6,049 nucleotides of DNA from a virus (lineage: Duplodnaviria; Heunggongvirae; Uroviricota; Caudoviricetes). Under the pieces are notes generated by a model. The model saw nothing but the letters and a program-made list of their open reading frames with translations, had not been told where the DNA came from and ran no database searches. The number at the start of each line of letters is the position of its first letter. Position 1 is the stretch's first letter. Shown one piece after another: positions 1 through 6,049 of this stretch. The DNA is taken from positions 1 through 6,049 of IMG/VR virus record IMGVR_UViG_2681813004_000019. The stretch is one strand, 5' to 3'. The translations under genes were made by a program, and so were the position numbers.

Positions 1-804
1 ATGAAGCGCATGCATGACGCCTTCCCTAATCGTCCGGCATCTTCTATCACGGTTAAGCAATGGGTTGACCTGCTTACCGAAGAAGAAAAAGATAATCCAC
101 GCCGAGCAAGGCAGGTGCTAAGTCAACTAAGATCAGCAATTAGTTGGTGCATGCGGCGTCAGTTGATAGATAGTTGCGCAATTATGAGCATCCAGCCAAG
201 GGACTTCGGCTCCCGTGCTGAGGTAGGGGATCGGGTACTGTCGTATCACGAACTGGCTAAGATTTGGCTTGCTATTGAAAGAAGCCGTGCGTCTACGTCA
301 AATAAGCTCCTTCATCAGATGCTTATGCTGTGGGGGGCGAGGCTCTCAGAGCTTAGGCTGGCAACAAAGACAGAATTTGACCTGCTGGACAACGTATGGA
401 CCGTACCGAAAGAGCATAGCAAGATGGGTAATGTTATCCGCCGTCCAATCTTCGAACAAATTAAGCCTTTCCTCGATAAGGCCATGACAACGTACAATGA
501 TGTTCTTTTCCCTGGAGAAGACATAAACAAACCGATCAGCATCGCTGCAGCCAACCGATTCGTAAATAGAATAAGGGGAGGGATGGATATAGGTTACTGG
601 CGAACACATGATTTCAGAAGAACGCTTGTTACACGTCTGTCCGAGATGAATGTCGAGCCTCATGTTACTGAGCGAATGCTCGGTCATGAACTTGGCGGGA
701 TAATGTCCGTATACAATAAACACGACTGGATAGAGGCTCAGCGCAAAGCGTATGAGCTTCACGCTGATAAATTGTTCTGGCACATCAGGAGCATTTCTGA
801 TTAA
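1..804 (+). CDS. int: Tyrosine-type phage integrase, C-terminal catalytic part; the gene almost certainly starts upstream of the window
   Basis: The 267-aa frame from position 1 contains the catalytic-domain motifs HDFRRT (His-x-x-Arg), LGH and a C-terminal Tyr in SVYNKHDW, ending at a TAA at 802-804. The N-terminal DNA-binding portion expected for a ~350-400 aa integrase is missing, so the ATG at position 1 is probably internal. Confidence 0.85.
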   Translation: MKRMHDAFPNRPASSITVKQWVDLLTEEEKDNPRRARQVLSQLRSAISWCMRRQLIDSCAIMSIQPRDFGSRAEVGDRVLSYHELAKIWLAIERSRASTSNKLLHQMLMLWGARLSELRLATKTEFDLLDNVWTVPKEHSKMGNVIRRPIFEQIKPFLDKAMTTYNDVLFPGEDINKPISIAAANRFVNRIRGGMDIGYWRTHDFRRTLVTRLSEMNVEPHVTERMLGHELGGIMSVYNKHDWIEAQRKAYELHADKLFWHIRSISD

Positions 805-976
805 CGCCACCGTTAAGAATCCACCCTTCAACAGCTTCACGAAGGTATGATTTGGGGTGGGTTCTGACTGGCTTCGGAAATCCGTGCCGTTTGGTATAGT
901 TCCAGATTGTCTGACGTGATGAAACACCGAGCTTGTTCATCACTTCTTTCTCAGGAATCAGGCTGGTATCGGTCAT
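785..976 (-). CDS. xis: Excisionase / AlpA-family HTH DNA-binding protein (63 aa)
   Basis: The protein MTDTSLIPEKEVMNKLGVSSRQTIWNYTKRHGFPKPV... has the helix-turn-helix plus FPKP motif typical of AlpA/Xis (HTH_17) proteins. A GGAG lies 7 nt upstream of the ATG at 976. The gene is convergent with int and their 3' ends overlap by 20 bp. Confidence 0.7.
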   Translation of the reverse strand: MTDTSLIPEKEVMNKLGVSSRQTIWNYTKRHGFPKPVRTHPKSYLREAVEGWILNGGVNQKCS

Positions 977-993
977 CTTAATTCTCCAGGCAA

Positions 994-1017
994 AAATAAA
1001 CCGCCATCAGGCGGCTT
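994..1017 (-). terminator. Intrinsic terminator on the - strand, between the 55-aa ORF and xis
   Basis: Read on the - strand the sequence is GCCGCC-TGAT-GGCGG followed by TTTATTTTTG. The stop codon of the upstream 55-aa ORF sits in the loop. Confidence 0.6.
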
Positions 1018-1174
1018 GGTGTTCTTTCAGTTCTTCAATTCGAATATTGGTTATGTCTGCATGTGCTATCTGCGCCCATATCATCCAGTGGTCGTAGCAG
1101 TCGTTGATGTTCTCCGCTTCGATAACTCTGTTGAATGGTTCTCCATTCCATTCACCTCTGACTTTGAATTTCAT
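1007..1174 (-). CDS. Small phage protein of unknown function (55 aa), absent from the ORF track because it is under 60 aa
   Basis: Hand translation gives MKFKVRGEWNGEPFNRVIEAENINDCYDHWMIGAQIAHADITNIRIEELKEHKAA. An AGGTGA Shine-Dalgarno lies 6 nt upstream of the ATG. The ORF exactly fills the gap between two intrinsic terminators. Confidence 0.4.
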   Translation of the reverse strand: MKFKVRGEWNGEPFNRVIEAENINDCYDHWMIWAQIAHADITNIRIEELKEHQAA

Positions 1175-1188
1175 TAAGTTTCACCTGT

Positions 1189-1212
1189 AAAAAAAGGAGC
1201 CGAAGCTCCTTT
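1189..1212 (-). terminator. Intrinsic terminator with a UUCG tetraloop, just downstream of the antirepressor-like gene
   Basis: Read on the - strand the sequence is AAAGGAGC-TTCG-GCTCCTTT followed by a run of 7 T, beginning 5 nt after the stop of the 1217-1840 gene. Confidence 0.65.
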
Positions 1213-1216
1213 GATA

Positions 1217-1840
1217 TTAAAATTCGAATTGTCTCGCCCGAAGGCTTTTTAACATTGGTCTTGCCCGTTCGAAAATGGCGCTTGTCTGGTCAATTCGTGT
1301 TGCCTCCCTGAGAAGTGCGTCTCTGTTTTTCGTCACCGCGTAGAAGGTTTCAAACGCGATGTCATACAGCTTGCTCGCGTATGATGAGTTAAGTTCCTTC
1401 ATTATCGGGTACAGGTGTTTGCAGATGTCCTGTGCATTCTCCATCTGTACCTGCATGTAGCAGAGGAGGATGATTTCCTCGTCTGTGAATTGCTGCGCTG
1501 GTTGCATGCTGCGAAGTTTCTTTTCGCACTCGATGAAGTATCGGCGTATCTGGCGGCCTTTTTCGTTGCGCTCCACCATCGCAGTTTCTTTGGCTGTATC
1601 GAGGGTGAGGTGATAGTCTTTGCTACGGCGATCGCCTCCTCGACCTTTGATTTCCCGATTTGGGGAAACCAAAATATAGTCCTGATTTTCAACGAAACCA
1701 TATTCAGCAATGCGTTCTGTAATCCACGATGCAAAGCGTTTACCTACCCCAAGAAAAGTATGTAAATCGCGAGCATTAACGAGAAGAGTGGTTTCGTTGG
1801 CGATAGTGCCGTTGAATACGGGGATGAGTTGACTGGTCAT
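1217..1840 (-). CDS. Phage antirepressor-like protein with an AntA/AntB-type N-terminal domain (207 aa)
   Basis: The N-terminal segment ...LVNARDLHTFLGVGKRFASWITERIAEYGFVENQDYILV... matches the recalled AntA/AntB antirepressor domain pattern. The gene sits downstream of a promoter/terminator leader and is followed by its own terminator. Confidence 0.55.
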   Translation of the reverse strand: MTSQLIPVFNGTIANETTLLVNARDLHTFLGVGKRFASWITERIAEYGFVENQDYILVSPNREIKGRGGDRRSKDYHLTLDTAKETAMVERNEKGRQIRRYFIECEKKLRSMQPAQQFTDEEIILLCYMQVQMENAQDICKHLYPIMKELNSSYASKLYDIAFETFYAVTKNRDALLREATRIDQTSAIFERARPMLKSLRARQFEF

Positions 1841-1985
1841 TTTTATGCCCTTTGCATTTGTTCAGATAGCCCTGTGTTCAGCAGGGCGGTCAGGTACTTG
1901 AACACCGTGCAAAGTCGGCCCGTATCCTTAACCTTTCGGTTGTTTTTCGGTATACGCGCTACCCGACCATATCTGAGAAATGGAC

Positions 1986-2015
1986 ATAAAAAAGCCGCAT
2001 GACTGACGGGTGCGG
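1986..2015 (-). terminator. Intrinsic terminator or attenuator on the - strand, in the leader upstream of the antirepressor-like gene
   Basis: Read on the - strand: CCGCA, an 11-nt loop, TGCGG, then CTTTTTTAT. The stem is short (5 bp), but the U-tract is strong. Confidence 0.5.
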
Positions 2016-2045
2016 TTTCCGCTTTGCAAGGTGTGTTCAGCACCA

Positions 2046-2083
2046 TGAAGCGGAATATAGCCCCGTTAATGCGGATTTGTCAA
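2046..2083 (-). promoter_or_regulatory. Sigma70-like promoter reading leftward toward the terminator and antirepressor gene
   Basis: On the - strand there is a perfect -35 TTGACA (+ coordinates 2078-2083), an 18-nt spacer, and a -10 TATATT (2054-2059). The predicted start is near 2046, about 58 nt upstream of the terminator U-tract. Confidence 0.5.
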
Positions 2084-2125
2084 ATCATGTGGTCTTTATC
2101 TTGCTGTAAGCCGCGCCATTCGGGA

Positions 2126-2147
2126 TTTTCCCCATATTTGGGGAAAA
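2126..2147. promoter_or_regulatory. Perfect 9-bp inverted repeat with a 4-bp spacer; candidate operator for a dimeric regulator
   Basis: TTTTCCCCA-TATT-TGGGGAAAA lies in the gap between the Ea22-like stop (2187) and the promoter. No T-tract follows it on either strand, so it is unlikely to be a terminator. Confidence 0.4.
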
Positions 2148-2186
2148 CTATCTGCGAAGTATTCACCTTTAACGGCAAGTTGCAAG

Positions 2187-3101
2187 TTAGCCACAGTTTA
2201 CCTCCTGCGGCGGTTCTGGTAGCGGCATCCAGAACAAGACGTTCCCTAACCACGATAAAGTGCCGTCGCTCAACTCCACGTATTCCCCTTGTACCTGTCC
2301 TGCCATATACTCGCCGTGCTTTGAATAAATTAAAATCCAATCATCTTGAGCGGGCATTCGCTCACTACAGCTTATCCAACTATCCGGAGTTACCGGAGAG
2401 TTGCCCGACAGCTCGTTCAACTTGTAAGTTTGGCTTACAGATTCGGCTTCCAGTGGCGGTAAATCTGGCACTGTTACGCCAAACAACGCTGCCAGTGCAC
2501 GATAGTTTTGCTCACTGTGATAGCGGCCTTTACAGCGAACCAGTTTTTCCGCAGCGGATTTGATTACTTCCAGTTCTGCTACCCTCTGCTGATACGTTAA
2601 TGACTCCTGTGCCAGCCCAGCATTCCAGTCTCGCAGTTCTGCTATGTGCTTCTCTGATGCTTCAAGTAACGCCTGCTTATCGCGTAGCGCTTCTTCCAGT
2701 TCAGCAACATGGCATTCACTATCAATAAGGTTGTTATCTGCGGCTTCCTGCTCTGATTTGCGCATCAAAACAACGTGCTTTAATGCGTCCTGGGCTTTCT
2801 GAAATTTCAGTGCATAGTCAGTGGCGATTTTTTCCAGTTCTGCGATACACTTGTTTTGGGCTTCCCGTTCATCCAGCAGTGCCTGCACTACTTTAGGGTT
2901 GAAAGCTGCGATAAATTCTGCGTTGTTCTCTGCATTTTTCTGGCCGTCAAAGCCAGGCCATTTGATAATGTCTCCGCAACGTTCATCCCCCGGCGTATGC
3001 ACCGCATATGTATCAGTGCCCGGCGAAATGAATGCGACCCATTCGCCCTGTGTTGCCTGTTTTGCTAACTCACGCAGTGCCTGATAGTCAATCTTGCTCA
3101 C
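2187..3101 (-). CDS. Ea22-like phage protein with a coiled-coil middle region and a DUF551-like C-terminal domain (304 aa)
   Basis: The N-terminus [21 protein letters not shown]...[10 protein letters not shown] matches the recalled ead/Ea22-like pattern. The middle is rich in heptad-like charged residues. The C-terminus carries the W/P-rich DUF551-type signature ([11 protein letters not shown]...WMPLPEPP). It uses a GTG start preceded by AGGAGG at 7 nt, and the start overlaps the stop of the upstream 55-aa ORF (GTGA). Confidence 0.7.
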
Positions 3102-3265
3102 TGGTTGCCTCCTTTACGCCACATCGCATTCAGATATTTGTTTTGATTCACTGATGGAAAAGAATTTCTCTTAAGCAATTCCTCTCTCGATGGCATTGGC
3201 TTTACGCGTTGGCGAATAATCATTTCTGCCGGAAGAATGCCGGGATTGTATGCAAGTCCTCTCAT
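3098..3265 (-). CDS. Small phage protein of unknown function (55 aa); its first 12 codons lie inside direct-repeat copy 1 and it has no good Shine-Dalgarno
   Basis: Hand translation gives [55 protein letters not shown]. Its stop overlaps the Ea22 GTG start. The sequence upstream of the ATG is chromosomal-like insert DNA without an SD, whereas the duplicated copy of the ATG at 3954 keeps a GAGGAA SD. Confidence 0.4.
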
Positions 3266-3271
3266 GGTAAA
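3231..3271. repeat. 41-bp perfect direct repeat, copy 1
   Basis: GGAAGAATGCCGGGATTGTATGCAAGTCCTCTCATGGTAAA is identical to 3920-3960, an offset of 689 bp. The flanking bases differ on both sides. Confidence 0.95.
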
Positions 3272-3343
3272 CCCGGTAGCCGTAAGGGATAAGCCGAGGG
3301 CACCGCGCAGCGGCGATTTTGTTCGCCAGAGCCCGGGGGTGCA

Positions 3344-3369
3344 GGGGGCGGCGGCGATTGGCCGCCCCC
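3344..3369. repeat. GC-rich perfect hairpin (9-bp stem, 8-nt loop)
   Basis: GGGGGCGGC-ggcgattg-GCCGCCCCC lies inside the inserted segment. No U-tract follows it on either strand. It could be a chromosomal extragenic repeat or structural element. Confidence 0.4.
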
Positions 3370-3481
3370 TGCGCGCTCCTTGCGCCAGTGATTATATGAA
3401 GCAATGCACATGACAGGAGCGCAACAGGATGAGAGACTGAAATATTCTCGTTATTTTCGGACCTGATGACATTAATTAATT

Positions 3482-3565
3482 TTAAAATATCATCTTAAAT
3501 ACGCCAGTCACCACCAGTAGCCCAATCAGGAAAATAATCAATACAGCCCAGAGTATAATTTTCAT
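3482..3565 (-). CDS. yohP: 27-aa hydrophobic single-pass membrane peptide resembling E. coli YohP (identification from memory)
   Basis: Hand translation gives MKIILWAVLIIFLIGLLVVTGVFKMIF with a TAA stop. AAGGA lies 6 nt upstream of the ATG. The peptide is almost entirely hydrophobic, consistent with one transmembrane helix. Confidence 0.5.
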   Translation of the reverse strand: MKIILWAVLIIFLIGLLVVTGVFKMIF

Positions 3566-3818
3566 TGGCGTTCCTTTATTTGTGAGTGCTGAATAAGTAT
3601 AGGAAAAAACGAAGCCCTTTGCCGTTATCCATAAACGATTAAGATAAATCGGAAGATATCATTCACTTAGTGTATATTTTTCTGGATATGTCGTTTTATT
3701 GCTACTGATGTATTGCCACGCGAAACTAAAAAATATATCGCAACACACGGTAATCTTCGCGCACCTTTTCTTACCTGATTATTCCCCCATGAATCGTGAT
3801 TCCTTTTATCCAGCCATC

Positions 3819-3918
3819 GGGTAATGCTGCCAACTTACTGATTTAGTGTATGATGGTGTTTTTGAGGTGCTCCAGTGGCTTCTGTTTCTATCAGCTGTCC
3901 CTCCTGTTCAGCTACTGA
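3819..3918 (+). mobile_element. insA: IS1 terminal fragment: left inverted repeat plus the first 14 codons of insA, truncated
   Basis: GGTAATGCTGCCAACTTACTGAT...GAGGTGCTCCAGTGGCTTCTGTTTCTATCAGCTGTCCCTCCTGTTCAGCTACTGA matches the recalled IS1 end and the InsA N-terminus MASVSISCPSCSAT. Identity stops at 3918, one base before repeat copy 2. Confidence 0.8.
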
Positions 3919-3919
3919 A

Positions 3920-3960
3920 GGAAGAATGCCGGGATTGTATGCAAGTCCTCTCATGGTAAA
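3920..3960. repeat. 41-bp perfect direct repeat, copy 2, abutting the IS1 fragment
   Basis: Identical to 3231-3271. It contains the ATG (3954) and first 12 codons of the small ORF, here preceded by the native GAGGAA SD and the stop of the 98-aa gene. Confidence 0.95.
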
Positions 3961-3964
3961 TTCC

Positions 3965-4261
3965 TCAGTCATTACTGATAGCGCCATAGCGTGAGCGGTA
4001 ATTACGCAGGCGCGGGTCGATATATTCAGGGAATTTGTCTATTGTCGCTTTTCGCAACGGTCTCATTGCTGTTTCGTTTGTTCGGTCCTTCTCATCTTTT
4101 AACGCGAGTTGTATATCGCGTCGGTACATCCGTTCTGCTTTTGTTTCTGGTGGCAGATCAATAAACGTGTCGAAAATGTTTTTGATATTTTCCAGCACCT
4201 CCGCCTTGGAGCTACCGGAGCAATTGCGCGGGTCATCCGCACCATACAGAGGCGCTGGCAT
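3965..4261 (-). CDS. Phage protein of unknown function (98 aa)
   Basis: The ORF is in the six-frame track, lies in the operon between the SSB-like gene (stop at 4285) and the split small ORF, and is charged and hydrophilic. I do not recognise a family. Confidence 0.45.
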   Translation of the reverse strand: MPAPLYGADDPRNCSGSSKAEVLENIKNIFDTFIDLPPETKAERMYRRDIQLALKDEKDRTNETAMRPLRKATIDKFPEYIDPRLRNYRSRYGAISND

Positions 4262-4284
4262 AATGGGAGCCTTATTTTCAGTAA

Positions 4285-4872
4285 TCAGAAAGGAGGGTAA
4301 TCGTTCTGGCTGTAACCATAATCATCTGCATGATTCTGGCTTACGTTTTTAGAGCGATTGTCTTTATCTTTGAGATTGGCAACCATGTTGGCGATAGTTT
4401 CTGGTTGCTTGCCTTCTGCCTTTTCTTTAAGGGTTTGACCTGTTTGTGCAATAAACGGGATGCGTATTTCCATCTGGTAGCTGTCTGCGCCAGTCTTTTT
4501 GTTTGTGGTTAATACTTTCTGGAGCACTAACCCGATTTTCTTTCCATGAAATTCAGGTGCAACAAATTTACTGGCGGAAACCATATGCTGCGTTAATTGT
4601 CCAATCCCGGCACACCCCATCATGGCGTGAACGACATTTGCGCCAAATTTGTTTTCCGTGCCGTCATTTTTCTGAACACAGACGCTAAGATATTGGATTT
4701 TACGTCCGTCGTCGGATTCGCCAGAAAACTCAATAAATTTGGCTCCTTTTTCTGATTGCTTTAGTTCTGCTTCAGTAATGGTAATGATATGAGCACCAGT
4801 TTCGTTAATAAAACCACCTTGCCCTGCGGTCAGTGCTGCTTCTTCGTTATAAGTAAAAATCACGTTGCTCAT
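4285..4872 (-). CDS. Putative phage ssDNA-binding protein partnering the Sak4-like ATPase (195 aa); the C-terminus DYPPF resembles the SSB/gp2.5 acidic-aromatic tip
   Basis: The start ATG overlaps the Sak4 stop (ATGA), suggesting translational coupling. The C-terminal ~50 residues are low-complexity and polar, ending ...NHADDYGYSQNDYPPF, which recalls the ...DDDIPF tip of SSB. The family assignment is uncertain. Confidence 0.4.
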   Translation of the reverse strand: MSNVIFTYNEEAALTAGQGGFINETGAHIITITEAELKQSEKGAKFIEFSGESDDGRKIQYLSVCVQKNDGTENKFGANVVHAMMGCAGIGQLTQHMVSASKFVAPEFHGKKIGLVLQKVLTTNKKTGADSYQMEIRIPFIAQTGQTLKEKAEGKQPETIANMVANLKDKDNRSKNVSQNHADDYGYSQNDYPPF

Positions 4873-5549
4873 GCGGCGTTTTCCTTAATTTGATGAACAT
4901 TATTGATGCCGTAGTAATCACAAACAGTGGCATCGACGAAAGAGAGATCGTTATCAATCTCATTGGAATCAAACATTCCCATTGGGGATTTAACAGTGTC
5001 TGCACCGTTGTTTTTTGTGGTGAAAAAGAACTGGTCATCACGGGTAAGGGTGCGAAGAACTATAGTAAACATGCCTTCGACAGTGATTTTCTCGTCCAGC
5101 ATTTTGCCGATAGTCTTCATTTTCACACGCCCCATAGGAGTTTCTTCGGTGTGCGCAAGAAAATAGACTCTCAGGTCATCAGGCGCATCCTGCGCAGCCT
5201 TAATGACCTCCCATGCGTGACGGCCTATCTCAGTAAATTTATCAAACGATTTTTCTTCTGAGCGGCGCATAAACTCATTGCTCATCACATACTGGAAGTC
5301 ATCAACAATAACGATTCTTTTCCCGTATTCGTGAGCACGCTTAATTACGGCAACTATTACGTCCCATTTGTCAGTGGTAACTACGGTTCCTTTTTTTGCT
5401 CTGGCATCCCATGCAAGCCAGTCTTTTGATTTAAATGGTAGCGGCTTGCCTATTGGTTTTATAAGTATTGCTTCCTCTGGATTGATATTTCTCATGCTGG
5501 TTGATTTTCCGGTGCCAGACTCACCGAGTATTAATGTCGCAGTTCCCAT
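4869..5549 (-). CDS. Sak4-like phage recombination ATPase, RecA/Rad51-like core, AAA_24-type (226 aa)
   Basis: Walker A GESGTGKS is near the N-terminus, Walker B is RIVIVDD, and the size is about 226 aa. It occupies the position where lambda has bet/exo, downstream of cIII-kil. GAGG lies 7 nt upstream of the ATG. Confidence 0.6.
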   Translation of the reverse strand: MGTATLILGESGTGKSTSMRNINPEEAILIKPIGKPLPFKSKDWLAWDARAKKGTVVTTDKWDVIVAVIKRAHEYGKRIVIVDDFQYVMSNEFMRRSEEKSFDKFTEIGRHAWEVIKAAQDAPDDLRVYFLAHTEETPMGRVKMKTIGKMLDEKITVEGMFTIVLRTLTRDDQFFFTTKNNGADTVKSPMGMFDSNEIDNDLSFVDATVCDYYGINNVHQIKENAA

Positions 5550-5557
5550 AATTTGCC

Positions 5558-5746
5558 TCAGAATGGTAATTCGGATGGGGAGGAAAGAAACTCGCGCTCA
5601 TTCATGCGCTCTCTTTGTGCCTGCCATAAACAAAGTTGTTTCTTTGATTTATCTCCCGCTTTACGCCAGTAACGAGCCTCAGCAATGTGATATTCTCTTT
5701 TTAATCGACTTAACTCTGGAGTTTTCGCCAGTTCTACCGGAATCAT
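5558..5746 (-). CDS. Small phage protein of unknown function (62 aa, counted from the second ATG), ending ...SELPF
   Basis: GGAGG lies 5 nt upstream of the second ATG (MIPVELAKTPEL...), whereas the first ATG has no usable SD. The start overlaps the kil-like stop (ATGA). Confidence 0.45.
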   Translation of the reverse strand: MIPVELAKTPELSRLKREYHIAEARYWRKAGDKSKKQLCLWQAQRERMNEREFLSSPSELPF

Positions 5747-5856
5747 TTTGACCTCCATTTCCTGTAGGCTTCGACGGCCTCACGAAACATCTTTTCATCG
5801 CCAATAAAAGTGGCGATAGTGAATTTAGTCTGGATAGCCATAAGTGTTTTATCCAT
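5743..5856 (-). CDS. kil: Kil-like protein (lambda kil family, host cell-division inhibitor), 37 aa as encoded here
   Basis: MDKTLMAIQTKFTIATFIGDEKMFREAVEAYRKW... matches my recollection of lambda Kil (MDQTLMAIQTKF...). The start overlaps the 3' end of cIII as in lambda, with AGGAG 9 nt upstream. Confidence 0.6.
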   Translation of the reverse strand: MDKTLMAIQTKFTIATFIGDEKMFREAVEAYRKWRSK

Positions 5857-5989
5857 TTTTTGGAACTCCTGGCTGATTAAGTATGTCGATAAGGCGTTTC
5901 CATCCGTCACGTAATTTACGTGTGATTCGCTCAAGTAAAGATTCGGAAGGGCAGCCAGCAACAGGCCACCCTGCAATGGCATATTGCAT
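5849..5989 (-). CDS. cIII: CIII-like protein (lambda cIII family, FtsH inhibitor that stabilises CII), 46 aa as encoded here
   Basis: MQYAIAGWPVAGCPSESLLERITRKLRDGWKRLIDILNQPGVPKNG matches the recalled lambda CIII sequence, including the central amphipathic helix. A strong RBS AAGGAG lies 6 nt upstream of the ATG. Confidence 0.8.
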   Translation of the reverse strand: MQYAIAGWPVAGCPSESLLERITRKLRDGWKRLIDILNQPGVPKNG

Positions 5990-6049
5990 GGTGTGCTCCT
6001 TATTTATACATAACGAAAACGCCTCGAGTGAAGCGTTATTGGTATGCAT

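Follow-up and report, generated by a model that had tools for sequence, protein, structure and literature searches.

The 6,049-nucleotide stretch of DNA analysed here (the window) belongs to a lambdoid prophage in which two copies of a 41-bp sequence bracket 648 bp of host chromosomal DNA and IS1. We tentatively propose, with somewhat less than even confidence, that one recent illegitimate-recombination event copied these 648 bp of host DNA into the prophage, most likely by template switching. We read the structure as a private, very recent insertion in a grounded prophage, with misassembly as the less likely alternative. An earlier note, made from the sequence of the window, had read the region as an insertion scar pointing to illegitimate or template-switch recombination, or to capture from a chromosomal locus already bearing IS1, and our analysis supports that reading.

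The genes to the right of position 980 all lie on the minus strand and make up the pL (early-left) operon of a lambdoid prophage resembling HK620/P22, in the order cIII with a thermoregulator RNA, kil, a 62-aa ORF, a Sak4-like ATPase, DUF669, abc2, DUF2737, Ead/Ea22-DUF551, and an AntA-like gene. The prophage adjoins sbcB. Its integrase gene contains an in-frame stop codon, and the first ORF of the window (1-804) encodes only the C-terminal 267 aa; because of this stop codon, the prophage is probably grounded (defective). The operon genes around the insertion are as follows.

4869-5549, minus strand: Sak4-like ATPase.
4285-4872, minus strand: DUF669 protein.
3965-4261, minus strand: abc2, encoding an anti-RecBCD protein (Pfam Anti-RecBCD_p2; RefSeq annotation in the related locus L003); the operon gene upstream of the insertion.
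3098-3265, minus strand: intact DUF2737 gene, 55 aa, whose stop codon overlaps the Ea22 start (GTGA).
2187-3101, minus strand: Ead/Ea22 + DUF551 gene, 304 aa, downstream of DUF2737, with its start overlapping the DUF2737 stop.
1228-1851, minus strand: AntA-like protein.

Comparison of the 6-kb window with itself revealed a perfect direct repeat, in which positions 3231-3271 match 3920-3960 letter for letter; such a repeat has a chance expectation of ~4e-18 in 6 kb. If two mismatches are allowed, the similarity reaches 5 nt further to the left (3226/3915). The DNA between the copies differs from its surroundings in composition, with a GC content of 65% at 3272-3432 and 36% at 3433-3818, against ~44-47% in the flanks. 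The earlier note had described two identical 41-bp copies around 648 bp unlike the neighboring phage DNA, and both observations held: the sequence comparison returned exactly these copies, and the segment, besides its deviating GC content, proved to be native E. coli dusC-yohP-mdtQ DNA joined to IS1. The repeat copies and the parts of the insert are listed from left to right.

3231-3271: target duplication copy 1, identical to 3920-3960; on the minus strand it holds 6 nt upstream of the DUF2737 ATG and codons 1-12 (codon 12 incomplete).
3272-3919, plus strand: insert of 648 bp, composed of host chromosomal DNA, IS1 nt 1-100 and one orphan base; missing exactly from GCA_014391625.1 (L004).
3272-3432, plus strand: the right 161 bp of a GC-rich repeat element, ~274 bp long, from the dusC-yohP spacer; 100% identical to K-12.
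3482-3565, minus strand: intact yohP, encoding a small membrane protein of 27 aa with the same sequence as K-12 YohP; Pfam likewise calls YohP on the source contig.
3566-3788: complete yohP-mdtQ intergenic spacer, containing the yohP upstream regulatory region; colinear with K-12 (L001 3295-3517).
3789-3818, plus strand: mdtQ codons 1-10, then interrupted by IS1; the K-12 mdtQ start (L001 3518) corresponds to window position 3789.
3819-3918, plus strand: IS1 nt 1-100, with the left inverted repeat (3819-3841), two hexamers resembling the pIRL promoter (3827-3854) and insA codons 1-14 from 3875.
3919: orphan base A, at a position where IS1 and phage both have C.
3920-3960: target duplication copy 2, which retains its native right-hand neighbor, the Shine-Dalgarno sequence and the abc2 stop codon.

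The host part of the insert (3272-3818, 547 bp) is colinear with the native dusC-yohP-mdtQ region of K-12 (L001 3001-3547) at 99.6% identity. The two SNPs both fall in the yohP-mdtQ spacer, at 3703 and 3757, where the window reads T. As the earlier note had suggested, we compared this segment with E. coli genomes, and it is the native yohP neighborhood, matched in all 5,426 of 5,426 complete genomes; yohP was annotated in every matching genome. In K-12 the ~274-bp repeat element occupies L001 2888-3161 and has a second copy, at 94% identity, in the lysO-aqpZ spacer. The 161-bp portion of it in the window includes the perfect hairpin that the earlier note had placed in the GC-rich part (3341-3372, with a 12-bp stem and an 8-nt loop), and the YohP-like 27-aa peptide that it had noticed in the AT-rich part is, by its translation, K-12 YohP itself. 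The gene has the same orientation as the phage early-left operon. A search of the insert interior against Rfam gave nothing significant (best score, AgvB at 22.9 bits against a gathering score of 56).

Past mdtQ codon 10, K-12 reads CCTGTTTTCC and the window reads GGTAATGCTG. The change occurs exactly where IS1 opens with its terminal GGT at 3819, directly on mdtQ, indicating that IS1 had inserted into mdtQ. The IS1 part (3820-3918) is 100% identical to an IS1B copy (L002), and IS1 is annotated likewise in phage P1 and other records. The earlier note had counted 100 bp of IS1 ending one base short of the second repeat copy; 3819-3918 is indeed IS1 nt 1-100, with only the orphan A between it and the repeat. 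Judging from its sequence, the insert may have been copied from an mdtQ::IS1 locus that already existed, possibly in the same genome. Searches of complete E. coli, phage, plasmid, species-representative, metagenome and viral collections yielded no second instance of the mdtQ::IS1 junction at codon 10, the presumed donor allele. IS1 is present at other yohP-mdtQ positions in dozens of genomes. Two groups of these were considered as donors and rejected: genomes of the H31 type carry IS1 at another spacer site, and in H126 and H127 it lies ~21 bp away.

The presence of a genuine IS1 left end abutting host DNA precisely at its terminal GGT, in a region that bears IS1 at other sites in so many genomes, is what would be expected if IS1 transposase had built the structure, whether by one-ended or pseudo-end transposition, by a cointegrate that later underwent deletion, or by an adjacent deletion or inversion joining mdtQ and the prophage. 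We nevertheless consider a transposase origin highly improbable. The window holds only the left inverted repeat, which is internal to the insert, and the left border at 3272 lacks an IS1-like end. The element is cut internally at ~nt 100 (the full element has 768 bp with insA/insB'), insA ends after codon 14, and no second copy is present. The duplication measures 41 bp rather than 8-9 bp. After an adjacent deletion or inversion, moreover, ~145 kb would be missing or turned around, but the sbcB flank is unbroken and equals that of the empty-site strain; this intact flank and the left border without IS1 rule out both the adjacent deletion/inversion models and excised-circle models. A cryptic IS1 end at the target (GGTAA...TTACTGAT) was rejected as well, as 44 of 500 shuffles, and other tiles of the window too, scored at least as high. 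The single, truncated and internally placed end, together with the 41-bp duplication, likewise excludes simple IS1 transposition, which the earlier note had already judged unable to explain the structure.

The structure was seen in one short-read draft contig only, AOTC01000242.1 of GCA_001447405.1, which is 100% identical to the window and breaks 69 bp past it, inside the same prophage. A second assembly of the same clone, GCA_014391625.1, has the same prophage at the same chromosomal site with a single 41-mer. Aligned to window positions 1-3271 and 3920-6049, it showed 0 mismatches in 5,401 bp, and 9,284 bp are identical when the host flank is included; the sole difference is the 648 bp plus the second 41-mer. 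This perfect empty site in the same clone indicates that the event is recent and private, and the complete identity of the flanks shows that it added exactly 648 bp and one 41-mer, with no change since.

Related loci gave the same picture. In 22 further prophage loci with the same DUF2737 or Abc2 protein, abc2 is followed by a 10-nt spacer and DUF2737, or else by an intervening phage gene. The position that yohP holds here, between abc2 and DUF2737, is without yohP both in these 22 loci and in GCA_014391625.1. The earlier note had anticipated that related prophages would lack the insert and carry a single 41-bp copy; all 23 loci lack the insert, and the 41-mer is single wherever we examined it, that is, in 12 related loci and in GCA_014391625.1. 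The abc2|DUF2737 boundary is a mosaic junction, with DUF5405 or an HNH endonuclease present there in some phages.

That mosaicism would suit an insert that belonged natively to a phage lineage, as an established moron passed on through homologous recombination, but we give this explanation almost no chance. The arrangement was found in 0 of 5,426 complete E. coli genomes, yohP DNA in 0 of 50,697 phage records and in 0 viral contigs, and neither junction in any of these; the flanks, moreover, show zero divergence from the empty-site twin. The earlier note had named related phages natively carrying the arrangement as the finding that would count against its reading, and these same phage records and viral contigs contained none. 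More widely, neither junction was matched in the complete E. coli genomes, phages, plasmids, species-representative genomes, or metagenome and viral contigs, and exact look-up of five junction-spanning ORFs (50, 77, 41, 39 and 39 aa) recovered no independent contig across the junctions. Among the collections searched, the arrangement is confined to a single assembly and is not maintained or spread in a phage lineage.

Occurrence in one draft assembly alone, with the sister assembly of the same clone empty, also raises the concern that the structure is an assembly or finishing artefact, in which a contig of 647-648 bp was placed between prophage contigs overlapping by 40-41 bp and joined without a gap. 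The small contig would be bounded by the 274-bp element on its left and by IS1 on its right, and the orphan A would be a placeholder or a contig-tip error. Several features agree with this. The source contig breaks inside the same prophage, hence a short-read assembly; the insert ends on both sides in repeated DNA; and 41 is a common k value, with a 40-41-bp overlap typical for adjacent contigs of a k-mer graph. If position 3271 is also taken as a separator A, the overlap becomes 40, or k-1, and both junctions look like contig + A + contig. In addition, the “second sample” with the contig is probably the same assembly in two sources, as happens with many NCBI records. However, a false graph edge would require a k-mer in common, and none exists either between IS1 nt 100 and phage or between phage and the 274-bp element, so the junctions need supporting reads or blunt concatenation. 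The reach into the repeats is also unlike that of one k: on the left the insert extends 22 nt past the nearest K-12-type SNP that distinguishes the copies, and on the right 100 nt into IS1, an inconsistency that led us to reject a De Bruijn contig-end model of the artefact. No Ns are present, and a target duplication around an insertion is a normal biological signature. We therefore regard an artefact as unlikely, but far from negligible.

The junctions bear on how a real insertion would have formed. On the left, the phage sequence …GGTAAA and the donor sequence …CCCGA have one A in common. On the right lies an imperfect 7-nt microhomology (6/7), with IS1 reading CTGACGG, the phage CTGCCGG and the product CTGAAGG at 3915-3921. 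Microhomology is thus short or imperfect at both junctions, 1 nt at one and 6/7 with a base change inside at the other. On the K-12 map, ~145 kb separate sbcB (2.076 Mb) from yohP (2.222 Mb). Relative to K-12 coordinates, the prophage flank and the insert are both reversed, which makes the insert a direct-orientation copy of a locus ~145 kb away, assuming that the source strain is syntenic with K-12; the same orientation is expected by chance in 50% of cases.

As the route we favor template switching during replication, in the manner of long-distance template switching or MMBIR, because of the minimal or imperfect microhomology at both junctions, the base change at one of them, and the re-entry 41 nt back. 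The target would be the 5' end of the DUF2737 gene, and the copied piece would comprise part of the dusC-yohP spacer, yohP, the yohP-mdtQ spacer, ten mdtQ codons and ~100 nt of IS1. A nascent strand on the prophage would leave its template where the 41-bp stretch ends and resume on the yohP/mdtQ::IS1 locus, ~145 kb off on the K-12 map and in the same orientation. After 648 nt, the strand would re-enter the prophage 41 nt behind its exit point, so that 41 bp would be copied twice. We infer this two-switch path from the anatomy of the junctions; in it, IS1 would be a passenger, not the agent. Long-distance template switching with short imperfect junction homologies and adjacent point changes has been described in E. 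coli (Slack et al. 2006, PMC1428787) and was generalised as MMBIR (Hastings et al. 2009, PMC2621351).

Two observations weigh against this route: the structure occurs in one short-read draft contig, and the presumed donor allele is absent from every collection searched. The single nucleotide shared at the left junction fits blunt end-joining equally well. The same insert could therefore have arisen by fragment capture, through alternative end-joining or illegitimate recombination of the topoisomerase type, if a free linear 648-bp fragment from the host or a foreign E. coli had been ligated into a staggered break with 41-nt overhangs that were then filled in. The near-blunt junctions (1 nt on the left, one untemplated or mutated base on the right) agree with such a ligation, and the absence of the donor junction from all genomes searched fits an exogenous fragment. 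But capture needs a break with 41-nt overhangs, and we know of no enzyme that would produce one here. End-joining in E. coli usually deletes rather than duplicates sequence, which also counts against capture, and the location of the return junction in a 6/7 microhomology (CTGNCGG) favors annealing-primed synthesis. We consider fragment capture less likely than template switching and, on its own, improbable.

The arrangement is expected to affect the genes at the target. At the empty site, the GAGGAA before the DUF2737 ATG overlaps the abc2 stop codon. In the window, the GAGGAA upstream of the intact DUF2737 copy has been replaced by host sequence (…ACCGGGTTTACC ATG), and the copy that kept its Shine-Dalgarno sequence opens a different reading frame:

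3954 to 3835, minus strand: chimeric 39-aa ORF, with the native Shine-Dalgarno sequence and DUF2737 codons 1-12 fused to antisense IS1.

The sequence and its ORFs therefore bear out two statements of the earlier note, that the 55-aa ORF (3098-3265) is without its Shine-Dalgarno sequence and that the copy with it (ATG at 3954) reads into IS1 and ends at 3835 after 39 aa. No public assembly has a gene call for the chimeric ORF. Translation of DUF2737, whose ribosome-binding site is lost, and of Ea22 is likely to be reduced, to judge from the sequence; because the Ea22 start overlaps the DUF2737 stop, Ea22 probably loses translation too. The displaced ribosome-binding site would instead drive the 39-aa chimeric peptide. 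The insertion may thus have a polar effect on downstream genes. No intrinsic terminator was detected in the insert, and since pL transcripts are antiterminated, strong transcriptional polarity is not expected. Scanning for consensus promoters gave no sigma-70 site on the minus strand; on the plus strand, the pIRL-like promoter (3827-3854) would point antisense into abc2.

If the insertion is real, it placed in the prophage a second, complete yohP with its own upstream region, co-oriented with pL transcription, and would put this copy under phage early transcription. YohP has been reported to depolarise the membrane, lowering the membrane potential, to induce the stringent response and to cause “metabolic silencing,” and in K-12 the gene is known to be expressed from its native promoter (PMC12719787). 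An additional copy driven by the phage might matter on induction. A far bolder reading, to which we assign only a slim chance, is that the window shows a moron caught at birth, in which the insertion is real and yohP has been newly acquired in the sense orientation of the N-antiterminated early-left operon. Were this so, induction or superinfection would overproduce YohP and shut the cell down, giving an abortive-infection-like or lysis-timing phenotype, and comparing the empty site (before) with the window (after) would demonstrate long-distance template switching as the origin of such captures. Even more speculatively, a yohP read-through RNA could have been reverse-transcribed to give the insert, the 41-bp duplication being a target-primed signature; the sole support for this is the variable-length duplication.

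Among known systems, the insert shares with template switching and MMBIR (PMC1428787, PMC2621351) imperfect microhomology of 1-7 nt and a point change at a junction, a presumed template on the same replichore, in direct orientation and at a distance of tens to hundreds of kb, and a short duplication that re-entry behind the exit point would leave. The E. coli cases in the literature, however, were obtained by selection under starvation and consist of tandem duplications or amplifications spanning 7-32 kb, whereas the present case would be a 648-bp patch copied into a distant site by two switches, a mechanism proposed from the junction anatomy. Like lambda bio/gal specialised transduction, the event joined host DNA to lambdoid DNA at non-homologous junctions; but aberrant excision takes att-adjacent DNA and replaces phage DNA, and here a distant locus was inserted internally with no phage DNA lost. 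With simple IS1 insertion the window has in common an authentic IS1 left end joined precisely to mdtQ, and differs in that only one end is present, within the block. No more than 100 of the 768 nt of IS1 are there, a transposase gene is lacking, and the duplication is 41 bp long where IS1 would leave 8-9 bp.

Lambdoid morons are self-contained host-like transcription units between phage genes. The insert resembles them in that a complete non-phage gene with its upstream region, of sharply different GC content, lies between two early-left genes. Unlike them, it is private, shows zero divergence and has an identifiable host donor locus; it disrupts a gene start and carries an IS1 stub, no terminator was detected in it, and there is no evidence of selection or spread. 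We therefore regard it as a new instance of a known event type in a single isolate, and not as a new element or system. If real, it is a rare natural host-gene capture resolved to the base in its donor locus, twin prophage and junctions, with no blurring divergence, and it would strengthen the case that phage morons can arise by replication-based illegitimate recombination. Its chief interest is that the states before and after the capture of a host gene by a prophage can be compared cleanly.

The GC-rich part of the insert (window 3272-3432) belongs to a family of ~274-bp repeats that is found at a median of three places per E. coli genome.

Places of the ~274-bp repeat family
Window 3272-3432: GC-rich part of the insert
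K-12 dusC-yohP-mdtQ locus (L001), 2888-3161
Locus L007, 1389-1661
Locus L021, 10471-10741
Locus L006, 855-1126
Locus L008, 1400-1671

One copy sits in the dusC-yohP spacer and another in the lysO-aqpZ spacer (94% identity), and in O157:H7 and E2348/69 the dusC-yohP copy is inverted relative to that of K-12 (~88% identity). The left half of the repeat matched the TwoAYGGAY RNA motif below threshold in the two copies tested, which scored 30.9 and 30.6 bits where the gathering score is 43; the hairpin loop of this match is AUGGAU.

In dozens of complete E. coli genomes, IS1 has inserted into the short yohP-mdtQ region, at several distinct sites. Thus, the region seems to be a frequent target of IS1.

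IS1 insertions in the yohP-mdtQ region
Locus with an IS1B copy (L002), 1945-2712
Complete E. coli genomes, numbered matches H31-H65 and H126-H128

The 171-kb source contig (L019) stops inside the prophage, 69 bp past the window end at 6049 (L019 12050-12118), and the sister assembly (L004) runs on into phage DNA at this point. The contig end is a sign of a draft assembly with unresolved prophage repeats. On the host side, plaP is followed directly by sbcB in the source strain (L019 2589-5445 compared with L022 8234-12540); tsuA/tsuB (yeeE/yeeD), which lie between these genes in K-12, are missing.

A single in-frame stop codon breaks the prophage integrase (window 1-804; L019 5626-6804) in two: an Arm-DNA-binding part of 107 aa and a catalytic part of 267 aa. 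Because this stop is common to all three samples of the clone (L004, L019 and L020), the prophage has probably lost the ability to excise.

Within the Ea22-like gene, a 16-nt CTTCCAGTTCTGCTAC-like motif recurs with a 63-nt period (window 2567-2708), a spacing that suggests 21-residue repeats in the encoded protein.

Two stretches of the window matched known RNA families.

Matches to RNA families
Window 1880-1968, minus strand: sRNA-Xcc1 Rfam match, 69.3 bits (gathering score 53), directly upstream of the AntA-like gene (1228-1851)
Window 5944-6002, minus strand: lambda cIII thermoregulator RNA element, 88.5 bits

The latter match is full-length, and it confirms that the cIII region starts at the right end of the window.
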